Positions 2,314 to 10,952 of a DNA stretch of 38,624 nucleotides are shown in pieces; within the stretch, counting starts at the first letter, position 1; each line of letters begins with the position of its first letter. The translations under genes and the position numbers were made by a program. The notes below the pieces were generated by a model. That model worked only from the letters and a program-made list of their open reading frames with translations, was not told the DNA's origin and did no database searches. The stretch is taken from positions 1-38,624 of the IMG/VR virus record IMGVR_UViG_3300028586_000046; one strand, given 5' to 3'. Origin of the DNA: a virus. Lineage: Duplodnaviria; Caudoviricetes.

Positions 2314-4954
2314 TCATTTATCGTTGCTGCCAGGCGAAGAAAGGGCGAGGATGCCGGCGCCCCCGTGCCCGCTGGTTCTCGCGCGGCCGGTGGTGGGCTC
2401 CCATCCCCCGGCTTGCACCAATGCCTCCAGAGTATCGGCTAAGGTATCGGGCGTAGGATGCTGCATAAACTCCTGACCAATAGTAAACGGCAACCACGCA
2501 TAGTGTGTTAATTGCTGGCTTGGCCAACTTGCCAGCAGTTTTGGTGATACCCGCTGCCAGATGGTGGAAAAGCTGAGCGGCAGACCTTTCACATTCACCC
2601 TTTTCTCGCGCACAAAGCGTAGGCGGCTGGCCTCCTCCAACCAGGTAATTCCGGACTGCATGCGCCGCATGTTGTCCGCCACCCATCCTGGGCCACTCTC
2701 CCCGGCTACGCGGCCTAGCATGTCGTGCATCCAGGGATTAATCCAAAAATTCAAGGTTTTCTCAATCAGCAACTGTTGCTGTGCCAATGACTCGGGCCAG
2801 TGCTGCTCTTGCAAAGCGCCAGCCCATTCTTCCTTGCGCTCGTCTAACCGGGCCAGCACCAAAAACAGGCCAACCTGTTCGTCAAAATCCCCGCTGCCTA
2901 ATACGGCTTGAATAGCTTTGCGATACAATTCTCGCTCCGATACCTTATAAAGCCCTACCAAACTCTCAGCCGTGTCGAGGTGCGACAAGCGTAGTAGTTG
3001 GAGCGTACTGGCTAATACAAGGCTCCGATATTTTGGCTGCATGGCCATGATACCTTCCTCCAGCATATCAAGGGCCACTCGCGACCCGACCCGCTTACGG
3101 GCAAGCAATATGTCGTCTGCCTCATCTAGTTCCCGGCACAACTGCATGACCATGTCGCGGTCCCGCGTATTCTGCTGAGCAAATGCTTGGCCTATGGCAA
3201 ACAGCAGGGTATTACGCCAGTAGGGTATCGGGGCAATGGCCCGCAATCGCTCTTTTACTACGTCGTACTCCTCCCGCATCAGGGCGCGCGCCGCCGAGAA
3301 TTCCTGTAATGACCTCACCTCAAAGCTGTAGCGGCCATCTTCCGGGGTTATAATAAACACAAGACGGTCCAGGGCAACGTGCATAATAGTATCCGTCAGC
3401 CAATCTAACTCTTCTCCGCTGTACTCCTCTTGCACTAAGTAATTATATACCAAGCACCGCAGCCGTTCAGGCGAGATGTAACCCTCCATTTTATCTATCG
3501 ACTCCCCTTCTACCTGCAGCAGCAGGCCAATGCGGTCGTGCAAAATTTCAAGGGTCTTGCGGTGGTCAGTCAGCACTTGCGACAGGGTGAGCCCGCGTTG
3601 CTGCTACGGCATCCAGCACCTCCATCCGGTTATTGACTGCCGGCACCTCGTCCAGCCCATCAAACACCACAAATAGAGCCGAGTTGGTTAGCATCAGCTC
3701 CGCATCTTGCGCGGTAAAGGAGCGCTTGGAGCGCTTATGCACTTGAGCGGCGATATACTCCAAAACGGAACCAACTTCCCCTTGAGCCAGTGCTCCAGCA
3801 AATTCCTGCAAGATGATGCGAAACGGCCAGCGGGGACAGGTGGGCAAACCAGTTCCCGACTCAGCAGCAGCTTGTTCTATCACCTGTAGCGTGCGATTCG
3901 TCTCGAACTCCAGCGTTCTAGTTGTATCTGCCCTAAGCAGCGCGGCACGGTAGCGTTGTGCCAGAAATTGGCCTAGCGTACTTTTTCCTTGCCCTGGTCC
4001 TCCTACAATGACAAAGCGGGAAGGCCCATATTTTTCCTCTGGAATAGAATCAAAAATTTCCGCAATACGCGCTTGCTCCTCCTCATCCTCCTCACCCAAG
4101 TCAGATTCGGCTTCCTCATACTCTTCCTCGTCCATGTGTGCCCGCCACGACTCGCCACTTAGTTGACGCTCCTCTCTGAGCAGCGTTGGGTGCAGTGGTC
4201 GGTCAGCCTTTTGCTGTACCTCCTGCACCACATATACCACTTGCTCGGGGCTTGATTCAGGTACCGCCTGCAAGTCTACAAACACTCGCGCTAGAGGGGG
4301 ACGACTATCACTGGCATGACCGGCCTGGGCCAGTAGGACGAATTGGTCAATCCGCAATTCTTCCTGCAGGAAAACTGATAGCGTCGTTTCTACACCCTGC
4401 TGATGCGAAAGGAACGCCTGCGCAACGTGGTGAATAAGATTGCCAGAATGTAACAAGCCAAACCGCTCAGCAACTTTGGGGGTGATGTCTACTAAGTTGT
4501 TGAGTTTGTCCCGGTCCCACACATCTGCTTCCTTAATACCTAGCTCCCCTTTCCAGTAGTTGAGGCGCTCCACAAATCTATCCTTACCCCCGGTATCCTG
4601 CTGCGCCGACAGGTGAGCGTTGGTGATAAAGAGAAAGTAATCTGGTCTTCTGCGCTTCCGCTTAGCAGTTTTATACCGCTCCATCTCTCTGTTGAGCTCC
4701 TTAATCGCCCAATCTGCTTCATCCTTAGGCGTTGCTCCCCGTGCCTGCTTCTACTTGCACTGAACTACTAAGTAGCCATTCCACAATGGACCGGCTAACC
4801 AATATTTCATCTACCCTTCGAAGGTTGCTTCTCGCCCGCCATCAGCGCCCGTAGTATATGGGCGCAGGCCGCGAGCAATGTGTTCGGCAAATAGCGCATT
4901 TGCCATGTGCTCGAAATTCTTATCACTCAAGTGCTCAAAGTCAAAATCAGGCAT
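2314..4954 (-). pseudogene. Restriction-endonuclease-like + NACHT/STAND NTPase (Avs/bNACHT-like defence gene), disrupted
   Basis: ATG at 4954 gives MPDFDFEHL...DGGREATF...VVQCK (PD-(D/E)xK-like). Walker A GGPGQGKST, Walker B VVFDGLDE. In-frame TAGs at 4811-4813 and 4751-4753, a frame break near 3580-3610 and an aberrant GC-rich 3' end. Confidence 0.8.
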
Positions 4955-6645: not shown

Positions 6646-7230
6646 CTAATTCTGGACTTCTGAGAGGTATTTGTGCATAGTTGCCACCGGTACGCCCGTG
6701 GCTAGTTGAATCTTCTTAAAGCTGAGCCCCTCCCCTCGCAGCCGACGCAGTTCTGCCACCACGTCGTCGGCCAGGGCCGGGCGTCCGGGCTGCTTGCTGC
6801 TGCGAGCCTGGCCAGCCTTGATACGCTCGGAGAAGCGGACGCGCTCCTGCTTGGCGATGGCGGCCAAAAAGCCAATTATTGCCTCCCGAAACATACCGGT
6901 ACTATCGAGGTACTGCTCGGTGAAGGATTTGAACTGCACGCCCGCCGTTGTGAGCCGCTGCAGGTGATTGAGCGTTTCGGTCACGCCCTCGCGGCTGAAG
7001 CGGTCGAGGCTCCAGAACAGCACCACGTCGAAGCGCCGCTGGTGGGCATCCGTAAAGAGCTGCTGAAACGCCGGCCGCTCGGCGCTGCCGCCGCTTTCCT
7101 GGTCGCAGTACTCCTTGTATACAGTATACCCTAGCCGCTCGGCAAAGGCCTGCAACTCGCGGAGTTGGTTCTCGTTGGTCTGGCCTTTGTCTTTGGTCGA
7201 GACCCGGGCGTAGATGGCGGCACTACTCAT
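6646..7230 (-). CDS. Small serine recombinase (resolvase/invertase family)
   Basis: YARVST catalytic motif, RPAF, LDRFSR, ERVRFSERIKAG and C-terminal HTH; ATG at 7230. Confidence 0.93.
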   Translation of the reverse strand: MSSAAIYARVSTKDKGQTNENQLRELQAFAERLGYTVYKEYCDQESGGSAERPAFQQLFTDAHQRRFDVVLFWSLDRFSREGVTETLNHLQRLTTAGVQFKSFTEQYLDSTGMFREAIIGFLAAIAKQERVRFSERIKAGQARSSKQPGRPALADDVVAELRRLRGEGLSFKKIQLATGVPVATMHKYLSEVQN

Positions 7231-7263
7231 CGCTCGAAAAGCATACAATATCCTTCATAAAAC

Positions 7264-7294
7264 AAAAAAGGGACTGAGCAATGCTCAGTCCCTT
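7264..7294 (-). terminator. Intrinsic terminator of the tRNA-like gene
   Basis: GGGACTGAGC-ATT-GCTCAGTCCC followed by TTTTTTGTT on the minus strand. Confidence 0.85.
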
Positions 7295-7297
7295 GTG

Positions 7298-7415
7298 TAC
7301 TCCGAACAGGACTCGAACCTGCATCTTGCCCTTAGAGATTATATCAAGAGCGACCCTGATATAATCTAGGACTTAACATGTGATAGGGCAGTTCTTCCAA
7401 TTAAACTACCGGAGC
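7298..7415 (-). ncRNA. tRNA-like RNA with 45 extra nt in the anticodon loop; anticodon unassignable
   Basis: Acceptor GCTCCGG/TCGGAGT, D arm GTTT-AATTGGAA-GAAC, stem GCCCT/AGGGC around a 52-nt loop, variable loop AAGAT, T arm GCAGG-TTCGAGT-CCTGT, discriminator A. Confidence 0.8.
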
Positions 7416-7494
7416 ATTTTAGAAACAATAACCTAGAAACCAGAGGTAATCTGACAAAGTTCATTTTTTGAAGAATTTAATACTGCGTACTTAG

Positions 7495-7598
7495 AAGTCG
7501 TTCCCAAAACTACTGTTTTTCGAACGACTTTCCACCCCACGCCAAAGGCCCCAAAAACGCAGGTTTTTGGGGCCTTTTTTAACAGGGTTTTTCGAACG
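7495..7598. repeat. Palindromes and repeats resembling res subsites, including a terminator-like hairpin after the tape measure gene
   Basis: AAGTCGTTC...GAACGACTT (7495-7530); AAAGGCCCCAAAAAC/GTTTTTGGGGCCTTT (7544-7577); GTTTTTCGAACG at 7515 and 7587. Confidence 0.6.
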
Positions 7599-7610
7599 CC
7601 TTCCGGGTGG

Positions 7611-10600
7611 CTACTTCGGCCGGATTTCCGAACGGCTCTGCACTTGCTTGATTTTCTCCTGGGCCTTGGCCAGGCCCAGCAGGTCGAGCACCACGTTGAG
7701 CTGGGTGGGCCACTCCTCTACCCTAGCCAGGCGCTGGTCGAGTGAGGCCAGCACCTGCACGAGCTGCGACTGCTCGGCCTGGTCGGTGGGTAGCGAAGTG
7801 ACGGCTGAGCGACTTTCGCCGGCTGTGGTGGGGCCGCCCTCGTAGAAGCCGCGCTGCCGGCGGGCCTCCAGCCAGCTCTCGACTTGCAGCACCTCGGGGT
7901 CCTGGCGCATCCACTCGGGAATGACGTACTCGTTCTTGTGCACAATGCCGGCGACCTCCAGGCCCTGGGCGTCGACCAGCTTGCCGTTGCTGGCTACACC
8001 CATGCCGGTGGCCGCACGCATGGCCGTACCCCACTGGCCCAGGCCAGCCGTGCTCACCCGGGCGCCCTCTCCGGTGGCCCCACCCTTGGCGTAGCCCACG
8101 ACGTTGGCCACTGCCATGCCCGCGCGCACAGTGGCCAGCGTGCTCAGCCCGATGCCGTAAACAGGCCCAGCAATCGGGCCCATCGTGGCCGCCGTTTTCC
8201 AGTAGTTCTGAATTTCGTCGTAGAGGTTGATGCCGATGTTGGCTACGGCATCGGCCTTGCGGGCGATTTTGAAGGCCTTATATAATAAGGTCTGCTTGCC
8301 TAGGCTATCCTCCAACGCCTGCACGTTATCGTCGTTGAGCACCTTCTCCACGCCCGCCAGCCCTTTTTTAAACCGGGCAACGTCATTGTCAAGGGCTTTG
8401 GCCTTAGTGGTGTGGGCGGCCTGCTCCTTGAGTTTTTCGGCCAGCAGCTTCTTATACTCGGCCGACTCCTCCCCGCTTTTCTGCTTGACGAGCGCCAATT
8501 CGCGGTCCATGGCCGCCTGCTTGCTCAGGTATGCCCATTCGTCGTGCTCCTGCTGGGTTAGCTTCTGGCCAGCCAGCTGCAGGTCCAGCTGCGCTAGCTC
8601 CACCTGCTCGTCAGCTTGGGCGGAGGCGATTTTCTTATCCAGCTCCGCCTGACGCGTCTTTTCGTCTTCCTCGGCCGACTTCGCCTTCAACTCGCGCAGG
8701 CGCAGGTCGCGGGCCTCCATGATGGCGGCTATCTGCTCGGTATAGTCCACTTCCAGGCCGGTCAGCTTCTTGACCTGGGCCTCGGCTTCGGCCAAGATGG
8801 TATCCTGCTGCTGCTGGCGGCGCATTCCTTGGTCAGTGAGGGCCACCTGGTCGCGTTGGCGGGCCAGGGCGTTGCGGGCATCGAGTAGCGCGCCCTCCTC
8901 GGATAGCCACTGCTTGAGGCCACTCAAGTGCTCCTGGTCAGCTTTGTCGCGGGCGGCCTTGCGCTCCTTGTAGGCCTTGTCGCGGGCCTTTTGGGCATCC
9001 TTGGCCGCTTTTTCGCGGGCCGCGTCGCTCTGGCCGTCGCCGCCCTGGGCACGCTGCTGCTGCGCGGTCTCGGCCTGCTCGGGGGCGGCCAGCTTGGCGG
9101 CGGCCTTCTTGGCCACGGCCGCCTCGAAGGCCAGGCGGTAGGCATCGCCCACCTTGGTGCCCAGGTTCGCAAACTCACTGCCGGCGCCGCTGAAGTCGCC
9201 GTCCTTCACCTTCCGCCAGGCCCGGCCTACGCTACCGAACGAGGTTTCAGCGGCGGCCGAGAAGGCCGCGAAGTAGGCCGGGGCGTTGCTGAGCAGGCTA
9301 AATAGGTCGCGCACGGGCCGGGTCAGCTCCTGCAGGAAAGCCTTGGCCACGTCGCTCGTCTTGGCCCACTCCACGGTGGCCTTCACTACCTCCGAAATTA
9401 CCCCCAGCAAGATGCGGGTGTTGGTGAACATAAAGTGGATGATGCTACCCAGGGCCTCCCCGGCCGACTTAGCCGTGAGCGTTTTGGTGCTCACCCAGCC
9501 CATCGCCTCGGCCAACTCGGTAAACGATTTCCAGATTTCCTGCACCGGCTCGAACAACTCCTTAAACGTGGCGCCGAGGCTGGCCAGCATGGTGTAGAGC
9601 ACCGTCATGCTCTTGTTGGCCAGCGTATCGAGCACGGTGCTGCCACCCTCGAACTCTTTGGTGAGGTCGTTCTGCGCCTCAGCCAGCTCGGTTTCGGAGG
9701 CCAGCAGGCGCTCCTGGCGTTGGGTGTAGGCGTTGGTTTTATCGACCAGCTCGTCCACGCCCTTGCCCACGTTTTTGAGCGACTTGAGGTAGTCGATGCC
9801 GGCATCCTCGCCCGGGCCGCCGAACACGTCGGCAATCACGGTTTGCAGCTGGCTGGCCGGAATTTTGGTTTCATCCAGTTCCTTGCCCACGCGCTGCAAG
9901 GCCTGCTCCACCGTGACGGTCCCGTTGTTGATGCCGTCGAAGATTTCCTTGGTGAAGTCCGAGCCAAACGCGGCTTGCAGGGCCTCGGTGGTGGCCTTGG
10001 TCTGCTCCCGAATGCGCAGGCCGAACTCCTTCACCACGTCGGCGCCCTTGTCCGAGAAAATGCCCTGGGTGGCTGACTGCGAAATGTGCCCGATGAAATC
10101 CTGGGCCGCAAAGCCCGCATCCTTGAACTGCGGCGCGTACTCCTTCACCTGGTCGAGGAAGTCGCCGCCGGCATCGGCGCCGGCCAGGAAGCCCTGCTGG
10201 ATTAATCGCATAGCTTCCTGCTGGCTCACCCCCATTTGCTTGCTGAGGGTGTTGCTGGCCTGGAGCACCTCGTTAAAATCCTTATCGAAGGAGCGCGATA
10301 CGGCCAGCACCGACGTGGTGAGCCCGTCCAGCTCGGTGCCAGTGGCCCCCGTCAGGGTGTTAATCTGGCCGCGCAGGGTCGCTACCTCCTTGGTGGTATT
10401 AATGATTTCGGCGCCTAGCTCTTTCACGCCCTCCAGCACCGCCTCGACCCCTACGGTCACGCCTCCAAAAGCCAGCGCCTGCTTAAATACGGAGCTTTCC
10501 TCCTGGGCACTACCCATTTCCTTCTTCACGCCCTCAATACGGTCTTGCAGGGCCTGGTAGTCGGCCACCATCTGCTTGCGGCCCGGGTGGTCGTTCGACA

Positions 10601-10952
10601 AGTCGTCGAGCTGGGCCTCCAGCTTTTTAGCCGCGGCATTCATTTCGTTGAACGAGGCCGACACCTTTTTACCATTCAGGATGACCTGGGCGTTTTCCTG
10701 GTTCAGCCGCTCGGCGGCCGCACGGGCCTCCTCCTCGGTCTGCACGTAGGTCGTCAGGTCGGTATTGGCTTCTTTTACCCGCGCCTTCAGCTCCTGAAAG
10801 TCCTTTTTCAACTGCTCCCGGCGCGGGTCGTCGTCGGCCATTTTGCGGAGCTGGTTGCGCAGCAGCGCCACGGCCGCGTCCATATCCTTGATGCTGGCGT
10901 TGGCCTGCGCGGCATTGAGCCGTATTTCTAACTCTCTCTGTTCGTTATCCAC
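7611..10952 (-). CDS. Tail tape measure protein
   Basis: 1113 aa, Ala/Glu/Lys-rich coiled coil; FLDQVKEY, DKGADVVKEF and FGGPGEDAG minor-tail segments; C-terminal GIVHKNEYVIP. Confidence 0.92.
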   Translation of the reverse strand: MDNEQRELEIRLNAAQANASIKDMDAAVALLRNQLRKMADDDPRREQLKKDFQELKARVKEANTDLTTYVQTEEEARAAAERLNQENAQVILNGKKVSASFNEMNAAAKKLEAQLDDLSNDHPGRKQMVADYQALQDRIEGVKKEMGSAQEESSVFKQALAFGGVTVGVEAVLEGVKELGAEIINTTKEVATLRGQINTLTGATGTELDGLTTSVLAVSRSFDKDFNEVLQASNTLSKQMGVSQQEAMRLIQQGFLAGADAGGDFLDQVKEYAPQFKDAGFAAQDFIGHISQSATQGIFSDKGADVVKEFGLRIREQTKATTEALQAAFGSDFTKEIFDGINNGTVTVEQALQRVGKELDETKIPASQLQTVIADVFGGPGEDAGIDYLKSLKNVGKGVDELVDKTNAYTQRQERLLASETELAEAQNDLTKEFEGGSTVLDTLANKSMTVLYTMLASLGATFKELFEPVQEIWKSFTELAEAMGWVSTKTLTAKSAGEALGSIIHFMFTNTRILLGVISEVVKATVEWAKTSDVAKAFLQELTRPVRDLFSLLSNAPAYFAAFSAAAETSFGSVGRAWRKVKDGDFSGAGSEFANLGTKVGDAYRLAFEAAVAKKAAAKLAAPEQAETAQQQRAQGGDGQSDAAREKAAKDAQKARDKAYKERKAARDKADQEHLSGLKQWLSEEGALLDARNALARQRDQVALTDQGMRRQQQQDTILAEAEAQVKKLTGLEVDYTEQIAAIMEARDLRLRELKAKSAEEDEKTRQAELDKKIASAQADEQVELAQLDLQLAGQKLTQQEHDEWAYLSKQAAMDRELALVKQKSGEESAEYKKLLAEKLKEQAAHTTKAKALDNDVARFKKGLAGVEKVLNDDNVQALEDSLGKQTLLYKAFKIARKADAVANIGINLYDEIQNYWKTAATMGPIAGPVYGIGLSTLATVRAGMAVANVVGYAKGGATGEGARVSTAGLGQWGTAMRAATGMGVASNGKLVDAQGLEVAGIVHKNEYVIPEWMRQDPEVLQVESWLEARRQRGFYEGGPTTAGESRSAVTSLPTDQAEQSQLVQVLASLDQRLARVEEWPTQLNVVLDLLGLAKAQEKIKQVQSRSEIRPK

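Follow-up and report, generated by a model that had tools for sequence, protein, structure and literature searches.

The window analysed here, that is, the whole stretch of 38,624 nucleotides, is the record of a 38.6-kb virus with an estimated completeness of 94%. It encodes a terminase, a head protease, a tape measure, an integrase and a small serine resolvase. By tape measure, its nearest relatives bearing the names of cultured organisms are prophages of Hymenobacter, and several metagenome bins among the relatives are labelled Janthinobacterium. The element studied lies on the minus strand, from 7415 to 7298 (a preliminary description of this locus had not given the strand). The tape-measure gene (7611..10952, minus strand) lies upstream, and the small serine resolvase gene (6646..7230, minus strand) forms the right border of the slot between the two genes. 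We collected 44 tape-measure loci, and the 21 with a resolvase inside the flank were counted as slots. The content differed in all 21 related slots, from 125 to 3341 bases and with ORFs or nothing, and the T-arm motif was found in none of the 21. Among 27 cargo ORFs, three matched PADLOC candidates (TIR/PDC-S66, GmrSD/PDC-M55C and PDC-S11, in 3 of the 21 slots), and the others encode outer-membrane, sensor, immunity-type or unassigned proteins. Judged by these sequence comparisons, the hypervariable slot between tape measure and resolvase is a cargo position, and the element is swappable cargo.

The left border of the slot is a conserved leader (7495..7602) with inverted repeats at 7544-7577 and 7495-7530 and a repeated motif. 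In the window and in the related loci L014-L017 and L051-L060, this leader contains inverted and direct repeats, with the motif in two main types. The four loci whose resolvases are nearest to that of the window (85-92% identity) have its motif type. The array looks like a resolvase site, putatively one that overlaps the cargo promoter. A Bacteroidota -7 box TAnnTTTG with all fixed letters (6/6) lies at the end of the leader (7505..7512, minus strand), and a TAnnTTTG box was found 99-130 nt behind the end of the tape-measure gene in 9 of the 14 related slots examined. TAnnTTTG is the Bacteroidota -7 consensus and stands at -12 to -5 (PMC9723704). The box at 7512-7505 is likely the promoter of the cargo. 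The gene had previously been credited with a -7-like box of its own. That box (7455..7462, minus strand) agrees with TAnnTTTG at only 5 of its 6 fixed letters, and the promoter is better seen in the slot-conserved box with 6/6 at 7512-7505. A sigma-70 scan gave 0 sites.

An A+T-rich leader (7416..7497, minus strand) forms part of the cassette. The G+C content is 29% in this leader and 35% in the loop of the element, and it is 61-63% in the flanking genes. The cassette is therefore likely a captured piece. An intrinsic terminator (7260..7294, minus strand), with a stem at 7294-7268 of 12 pairs followed by a T run, begins 3 nt past base 73, in agreement with the terminator proposed before. The terminator scan found one site against 0.6 expected in shuffles, so the evidence lies in its position and not in the count.

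Decay of cargo was observed elsewhere in the record. A broken cargo gene for a restriction nuclease/STAND ATPase (2314-4954, minus strand) lies 2.3 kb from the element. It is interrupted by two in-frame TAG stops (4813 and 4753), and near 3570 it has lost ~130 codons and changes frame; the reference is a single 920-aa frame in a related locus (L007), with 47% and 39% identity. The stops and the deletion in this gene indicate that cargo decay does happen in this record. In seven related prophages (L012, L017, L052, L055, L058, L059 and L060), differing host tRNAs (Arg CCG, Arg ACG, Leu, Met) were found near the resolvase/integrase end. Host tRNA genes at prophage ends fit integration sites, and the window has no tRNA there. 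In addition, a related prophage (L013; G004:13241-13310) contains 70 nt of degenerate tRNA-like sequence in which the acceptor and the T arm are intact; it scores 16 bits and thus falls below the Rfam cut-off.

The tRNA frame and its hairpin module

The Rfam tRNA model (RF00005) matched the element with 40.5 bits against a cut-off of 29. This was the sole match of the model within the window, and it leaves out 49 bases within the anticodon loop. No other Rfam family came near its own cut-off for the element. ARAGORN called no tRNA or tmRNA at the element with default settings; with relaxed thresholds it called a tRNA-Val(CAC) with a 45-nt intron, one of 123 mostly spurious calls.

Common tRNA numbering and generally known identity elements are used below. 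The 5′ half of the frame (7385..7415, minus strand) consists of the acceptor strand (7415-7409), the D arm (7406-7391), U26 (7390) and the 5′ strand of the anticodon stem (7389-7385). The 3′ half (7298..7332, minus strand) consists of the 3′ anticodon stem strand (7332-7328), the variable region (7327-7323), the T arm (7322-7306), the acceptor strand (7305-7299) and the discriminator A (7298). All 21 of 21 cloverleaf pairs are formed, including four G-U pairs (1-72, 7-66, 13-22 and 49-65). Furthermore, U8, A14, A15-U48, G18G19, A21, the T-loop and A73 can be read from the sequence, and CCA is absent from the gene. The acceptor, D, variable and T arms are thus canonical, as had been stated before. 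Compared with a decoding tRNA, the element has the acceptor (7 bp), D, anticodon and T stems and the invariant bases; however, its anticodon loop is not of 7 nt and measures 52 nt (7384-7333).

One contig of sequencing run X1 equals 7021-7573 with 0 differences; as the run possibly represents the source sample, this is not independent evidence. In runs X2-X4, X5, X6, X8 and X20, the element was covered by at most 33 T-arm bases (X8), which is not evidence of absence. A search with a 1.6-kb query listed no RNA data set containing the locus; a query of that length would hide a small RNA, so the result carries no information about expression.

On the minus strand, folding divides the loop into three parts: 17 unpaired nucleotides (7368..7384), a hairpin (7336..7367) and a 3-nt linker or bulge (7333..7335) between the hairpin and the 3′ anticodon strand. 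The hairpin has 14 bp, 11 of them perfect, with arms at 7367-7357 and 7346-7336 and a 4-nt tip at 7353-7350. This confirms the perfect 11-bp inverted repeat, extended to 14 bp with G-U pairs, that had been noticed in the 52-nt loop. Such a perfect 11-bp repeat was matched by 2 of 20,000 base shuffles of the loop, and none of 200 dinucleotide shuffles reached the folding energy of the loop (z −3.9). The last five bases of the unpaired part (7372-7368) are able to replace 7389-7385 opposite the 3′ anticodon strand. If they displace the 5′ anticodon strand, the hairpin grows to 19 bp across the 3-nt bulge. In the 19-bp form, all three departures from a perfect repeat are G-U on the minus strand, which is suggestive only, since the helix is defined by pairing.

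The lowest predicted fold of the element (−43.3 kcal/mol) is not the cloverleaf. The D hairpin is extended, two acceptor pairs and the anticodon stem are lost, and the 3′ anticodon strand pairs with the insert bases 7372-7368. The canonical cloverleaf lies 6.5 kcal/mol above this fold and the best fold keeping the acceptor, D and T arms 4.9 kcal/mol above it, and 9 of 11 intact control tRNAs were within 1.6 kcal/mol of their own lowest fold; these energies leave out tertiary contacts and modifications. In addition, bases 7372-7354, which make up the left part of the module, repeat 7349-7328 imperfectly in inverted orientation, and a 3-base repeat stands on both sides of 45 loop bases.

A pattern of the hairpin arms gave 15 matches in viral contigs, with 0 inside a tRNA loop, and the window has no second copy of the palindrome. 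In a 221-kb phage (L100:250-345, minus strand), two interleaved inverted repeats, possibly a pseudoknot, lie 3′ of a tRNA, and one repeat has the same 10-bp arms as the hairpin of the window. A gap of 30 nt separates it from the tRNA, which has a similar acceptor, and we judged the resemblance to be a coincidence. A 32-codon ORF (7366-7464, minus strand) begins in the leader, where its start context is A-rich, crosses the 5′ half and stops at the hairpin foot. All three of its Arg codons are AGA/AGG, which are rare in the record. This ORF is probably a chance product of A+T-rich DNA.

Ancestry of the frame could be studied by comparison with intact tRNAs. The five intact viral tRNAs (four distinct) that fit the acceptor and D-loop pattern of the element are all arginine tRNAs, a count that is partly circular through A20, which is itself an arginine mark. 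The tRNAs of normal length that share the D arm include 11 distinct ones; all 5 of these that have U26 are Arg(UCU), and the three longest phylum matches inspected are host Arg(UCU) genes. The nearest intact tRNA, that of L042, is equal at 22/26 and 22/25 frame positions, so that 7 of 51 differ. Moreover, the loop ends in UCU-A-A running into the stem. On the basis of viral and phylum tRNAs, the frame is of the arginine type, which strengthens the earlier suggestion that Arg ancestry is possible.

We then considered what excision would leave. No single removal gives Arg(UCU), for the result has either C33, or A33 without base 26. Removal between the 3-base repeats gives CUC with U37, which is non-canonical. 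However, if 45 nt are cut out at 37/38, the loop reads A32-U33-CAC-A37-A38, that of a canonical Val(CAC) save for A32, and the cloverleaf is the lowest fold of the product. The previous statement that no excision gives a clean loop is thus right for Arg(UCU), which is not restored, but slightly too strong for the 37/38 cut, with its near-canonical Val(CAC) loop. In the record, AGA/AGG account for 30 of 577 Arg codons, and GTG is the commonest Val codon (382 of 579). An amber suppressor was also considered, with CUA near the loop end and two TAG in a nearby gene. It was rejected on two grounds: no 7-nt loop places CUA at 34-36, and the nearby TAG-bearing gene also carries a deletion.

The searches for homologues returned little. 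Neither a DNA search nor a pattern search found the element in any of 274 family genomes. In 49 of 401 phylum genomes there were matches, none above 42 bases, and almost every one fell in the T arm or the 3′ half. The exact 3′ half gave 0 matches in viral contigs, and BlastN returned 72 records among phages (best cover 17%) and one short match among plasmids. A metagenome scan returned the window's own record alone; its pattern demanded a long loop, so an insert-free parent could not have been detected. Neither an insert-free nor an insert-bearing allele was found in the collections searched, an absence that may reflect sampling. The preliminary description had held that its reading would fail if the insert were unique while relatives had a normal 7-nt loop and no transcript were detected. 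The insert is indeed unique in everything searched, but the relatives have no tRNA there at all rather than one with a normal loop. Any functional claim is weakened most by the absence of a homologue of the module.

Viral RNAs of the same build

We searched viral sequences with a generic pattern that required only a D arm and a T arm at a spacing of 56-86 bases and left the acceptor stem unconstrained. It found 62 loci, 51 of them distinct. We retained 30 of the 51 distinct loci (39 of the 62 loci), which are tRNA frames with a replaced anticodon arm and form 6-7 pairs in the acceptor and 4-5 in the T stem; by chance, about 0.7 of 51 would be expected to do so. The remaining 21 of 51 were dropped because they formed too few pairs (below 6 in the acceptor or below 4 in the T stem) or contained an inner tRNA motif. 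The middles of the 30 look-alikes are 35-62 nt long and align neither with one another nor with the module of the window. The element has the features that define the set, namely complete acceptor, D and T arms and a module replacing the loop; the set was gathered in this analysis and is no curated family, and its D and T motifs are common by construction of the pattern. The look-alikes need not form one family or have one function.

A 5-bp anticodon stem is present in only 6 of the 30, and none of those 6 gives Y32-U33...R37 at the three cut sites tried. With so few anticodon stems and no canonical loop after cutting, the look-alikes as a set are not splice precursors. In the family of L120, L138 and L141, the fold is kept and there are compensatory changes in 2 of 36 pairs; in that of L115 and L160, the fold is kept with compensatory changes in 2 of 21 pairs. 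These changes weakly suggest conservation of the module in the two families. An alignment (A2) of 28 sequences, 27 of the 30 plus the window, was also made; its pair counts are circular, as the rows were picked for pairing.

We searched 24 look-alike records for protein families and found DUF2828 in 7, TROVE in 3 and RtcB in 1. A DUF2828 or TROVE gene lies within ~1.5 kb of the RNA in 5 of the 24 records, one of them by a weak match, and 19 of the 24 have no such neighbour. The window record gave 0 matches to DUF2828 or TROVE (PF11443, PF05731). In the set as a whole (L115-L175), L120/L138/L141, L127, L135 and L156 adjoin DUF2828/TROVE genes, and L151 and L169 adjoin Mu-type GemA and Mor genes. 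For L135, L141 and L156, a second over-long tRNA match was found at most 400 bases away. Two look-alikes were compared with annotated phages, without a match.

Some further RNAs with a tRNA frame were observed. A conserved RNA of 190-198 nt is present in 3 of the 274 family genomes (L110:1412-1609, L111:1411-1607 and L112:1420-1609, minus strand). It contains an internal T-arm-like hairpin and repeated short motifs, lies between an RlaP gene and a gene with a Prok-RING_4 domain, and has no Rfam match at E up to 0.05. A cellular genome, 1 of 401 of the host's order, contains a 123-nt RNA (L197:1490-1612, minus strand) which is identical to the window's element in the D arm (13/13) and in the variable region and T arm (21/21). 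Its module differs from that of the window and resembles that of L110-L112. In addition, a phage tRNA-Leu(UAA) (L107:162-272, minus strand) has a 26-nt self-complementary insert directly after the anticodon. Judged by eye, removal of this insert leaves a canonical Leu(UAA) loop, and it is a better intron candidate than the element of the window.

What the element may do, and the rival explanations

The element is likely unable to decode, and it probably belongs to a kind of non-coding RNA that is found again in many other phages. The explanation that we prefer, with a probability of about one half, is that an arginine-type tRNA frame does not decode, is processed like a tRNA, and displays its hairpin to a protein. 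Transcription would start at the slot promoter and end at the terminator. RNase P and 3′ nucleases would trim the transcript and CCA would be added, by way of the intact acceptor and T arm, giving one piece of ~121 nt. The RNA is predicted to be neither spliced nor used for decoding. Instead, a stable scaffold would present the hairpin to a protein, as the look-alikes suggest. By analogy with the ROT/TROVE (Ro60-like) neighbours, the likeliest partner would be a protein of the host that repairs RNA or binds tRNA, since the phage record has no such protein.

Several lines of evidence argue for this explanation. The frame is complete, the hairpin goes beyond chance, a terminator and a conserved -7 box are present, and the element sits in a cargo slot. 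Furthermore, the build is recurrent, with compensatory changes in small families, DUF2828/TROVE neighbours and the similarly framed RNA of L197. Engineered tRNAs with inserts are also processed in E. coli (PMC3753655). Against it stand the lack of a module homologue, the predicted misfold, the absence of DUF2828/TROVE from the record and of GNCGAA from the module, the 19 of 24 look-alike records without a ROT/TROVE neighbour, and the decayed cargo gene 2.3 kb off. A hairpin-displaying scaffold had been one of three hypotheses put forward before, and it is the best of them, as many unrelated viral frames carry such modules. Another, a decoy against anticodon nucleases, fits poorly: these nucleases read the anticodon stem-loop, and the normal anticodon loop is gone.

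The main rival, somewhat less probable, is that the cargo is disabled and any RNA from it inert. In that case an Arg cassette, probably UCU, was captured and then inactivated by a local insertion or inverted duplication, so recently that the frame is still intact. In its favour, the element is a singleton in every collection searched and a misfold is predicted. The likeness between 7372-7354 and 7349-7328 is what an inverted duplication would give, and the 3-base repeat flanking the 45 loop bases and the two stops and deletion in the neighbouring nuclease-STAND gene point the same way. In addition, AGA/AGG codons are rare in the record, so an Arg(UCU) cargo would once have been useful. However, since no single removal gives Arg(UCU), at least two further changes would have to have occurred while the 21 stem pairs stayed. 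Nor was an intact parent found, the nearest tRNA (L042) being 7 of 51 positions off, and the same build recurs and is kept in other phages.

The hairpin-display explanation can be extended, and the extended form seems rather unlikely to us. The tRNA frame would be a universal export format of phages for small RNA ligands, released as stable RNAs by host RNase P, 3′ trimming and CCA addition, with a swappable module at the anticodon position. This copy would then be an RNA-only moron, in a slot where relatives have TIR, GmrSD and PDC-type defence candidates, acting on a host tRNA-sensing, RNA-repair or defence protein; it would need no phage partner and would protect the lysogen or the phage.

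An intron spliced by proteins is improbable. Here a nuclease would remove 45 nt at 37/38, and the host RtcB would join the ends into a 73-nt tRNA-Val(CAC). The cut gives U33, A37 and A38, the product has the cloverleaf as its lowest fold, and A73, A35 and C36 are identity elements of valine. GTG is the commonest Val codon in the record, and the phage tRNA-Leu of L107 has an insert that can be removed to a canonical loop. However, A32 is atypical in tRNA loops, the frame is arginine-type, U33 with a purine at 37 would arise by chance in an estimated one case in seven, and 24 of the 30 look-alikes have no anticodon stem to restore. At this archaeal-type position, U33, A37 and A38 are correct and A32 is atypical. 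A bulge-helix-bulge is absent, with a 3-nt 3′ bulge and 1 of 4 central pairs formed. All 5 genomes searched that carry related prophages (none known as the host) encode RtcB, and 2 of the 5 encode TROVE. The splicing endonuclease (PF01974), by contrast, was found in 0 of these 5 genomes, with four archaeal controls positive, and in none of the 41 ORFs of the window. Thus cleavage followed by RtcB ligation, the third of the earlier hypotheses, has neither a motif nor an endonuclease in its favour. A precedent of a sort lies in the tRNA inserts of Lak phages, whose removal route, within the cited account, is not known (PMC6784885).

An antisense regulator, in which the frame stabilises the RNA and its unpaired parts pair with an mRNA leader, seems very improbable. 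The C4 RNA of phages P1 and P7 is a precedent for such a regulator, and the 17 unpaired bases and the hairpin tip are exposed. However, no target was found in 43 start regions of the window: for the best of four segments 13 of 200 shuffles were as good, and for the others 97-178. The longest exact word in common with the window is 10 nt, which 190 of 300 shuffles matched, and Rfam C4 gave no match at E up to 10.

Least probable of all is that the palindrome acts as DNA (an operator, a recombination or attachment-site remnant, or back-to-back extended -10 boxes) with the tRNA as its landing place: its 11-bp arms are perfect in DNA, each with a TGnTATAAT-type box, the resolvase gene is 100 bp off and in related prophages host tRNA genes adjoin the resolvase/integrase end, but the palindrome occurs only once in the window, the repeat array at 7495-7602 is the candidate site for the resolvase, none of the 15 viral arm matches lies within a tRNA loop, and Bacteroidota promoters use TAnnTTTG by the account cited above (PMC9723704), in line with the empty sigma-70 scan.

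On balance, we regard the element as a variant of a tRNA-derived non-coding RNA in a moron slot, that is, an unusual real gene with a fair chance of being dead. If it is active, it would be an RNA-only moron of ~240 bp including promoter and terminator; if inert, one more scarred tRNA. As tRNA finders miss or mislabel such genes, a layer of phage RNA genes may be unannotated.

Comparison with known systems

The phage tRNA-Arg genes of L042, L029 and L103 share with the element the acceptor pattern, A20, U26, G49-U65 and the T arm. However, they have a 7-nt loop and decoding is possible, whereas the loop of the element has 52 nt. tmRNA has tRNA-like ends and a domain replacing the anticodon arm, together with G3-U70 and a tag reading frame. 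Unlike tmRNA, the element has U3-A70 and a full D arm, ARAGORN found no tag frame in it, and it is one third the size. Group I introns have a catalytic core of some hundreds of bases and a terminal G; the insert has 45 nt, and no Rfam intron match was obtained at E up to 10. With the missing splicing endonuclease, this upholds the earlier view that the insert is neither a group I nor an archaeal-type intron. In the literature searched, in which subscription journals are sparsely covered, there was no published description of a tRNA-framed class.

Some natural RNAs are built in a similar way. YrlA of M. smegmatis is cleaved by RNase P and receives CCA (PMC4201824), and ROT/TROVE proteins work with a tRNA-like partner (PMC7824862). 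Like YrlA, YrlB and Yrn1 as described there, the element would be a non-decoding RNA with tRNA D and T arms, an acceptor stem and, putatively, a protein-binding module. However, YrlA is described as permuted, with an internal acceptor stem, GNCGAA and an adjacent Ro60 gene, whereas the RNA of the window has the normal tRNA order. The Ro60-binding GNCGAA is absent from its module, and the element has no Rfam YrlA match.

The engineered tRNA scaffold, with an insert in the anticodon stem-loop, is processed, protected and accumulates in E. coli (PMC3753655). It shares with the element the acceptor, D and T arms and a foreign hairpin at the anticodon stem-loop. The scaffold is artificial; it proves that the build can work, not that the gene of the window does.

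If active, the element would bear on whether natural tRNA frames display ligands, are spliced by a bacterial route or are junk, and on the tRNA inserts of Lak phages. The tRNAs of Lak megaphages carry "enigmatic" introns without a known removal route, as described by Devoto et al. (2019; PMC6784885). As in Lak, a phage tRNA gene contains extra sequence outside the recognised intron classes. The Lak inserts are described as recurrent and typically identical across cohorts, with insert-free alleles that define the cut; the element, by contrast, is a single copy with no insert-free allele, in a 39-kb temperate phage with no tRNA cluster. By that account, the Lak inserts are the nearest natural description of what lies in this slot.
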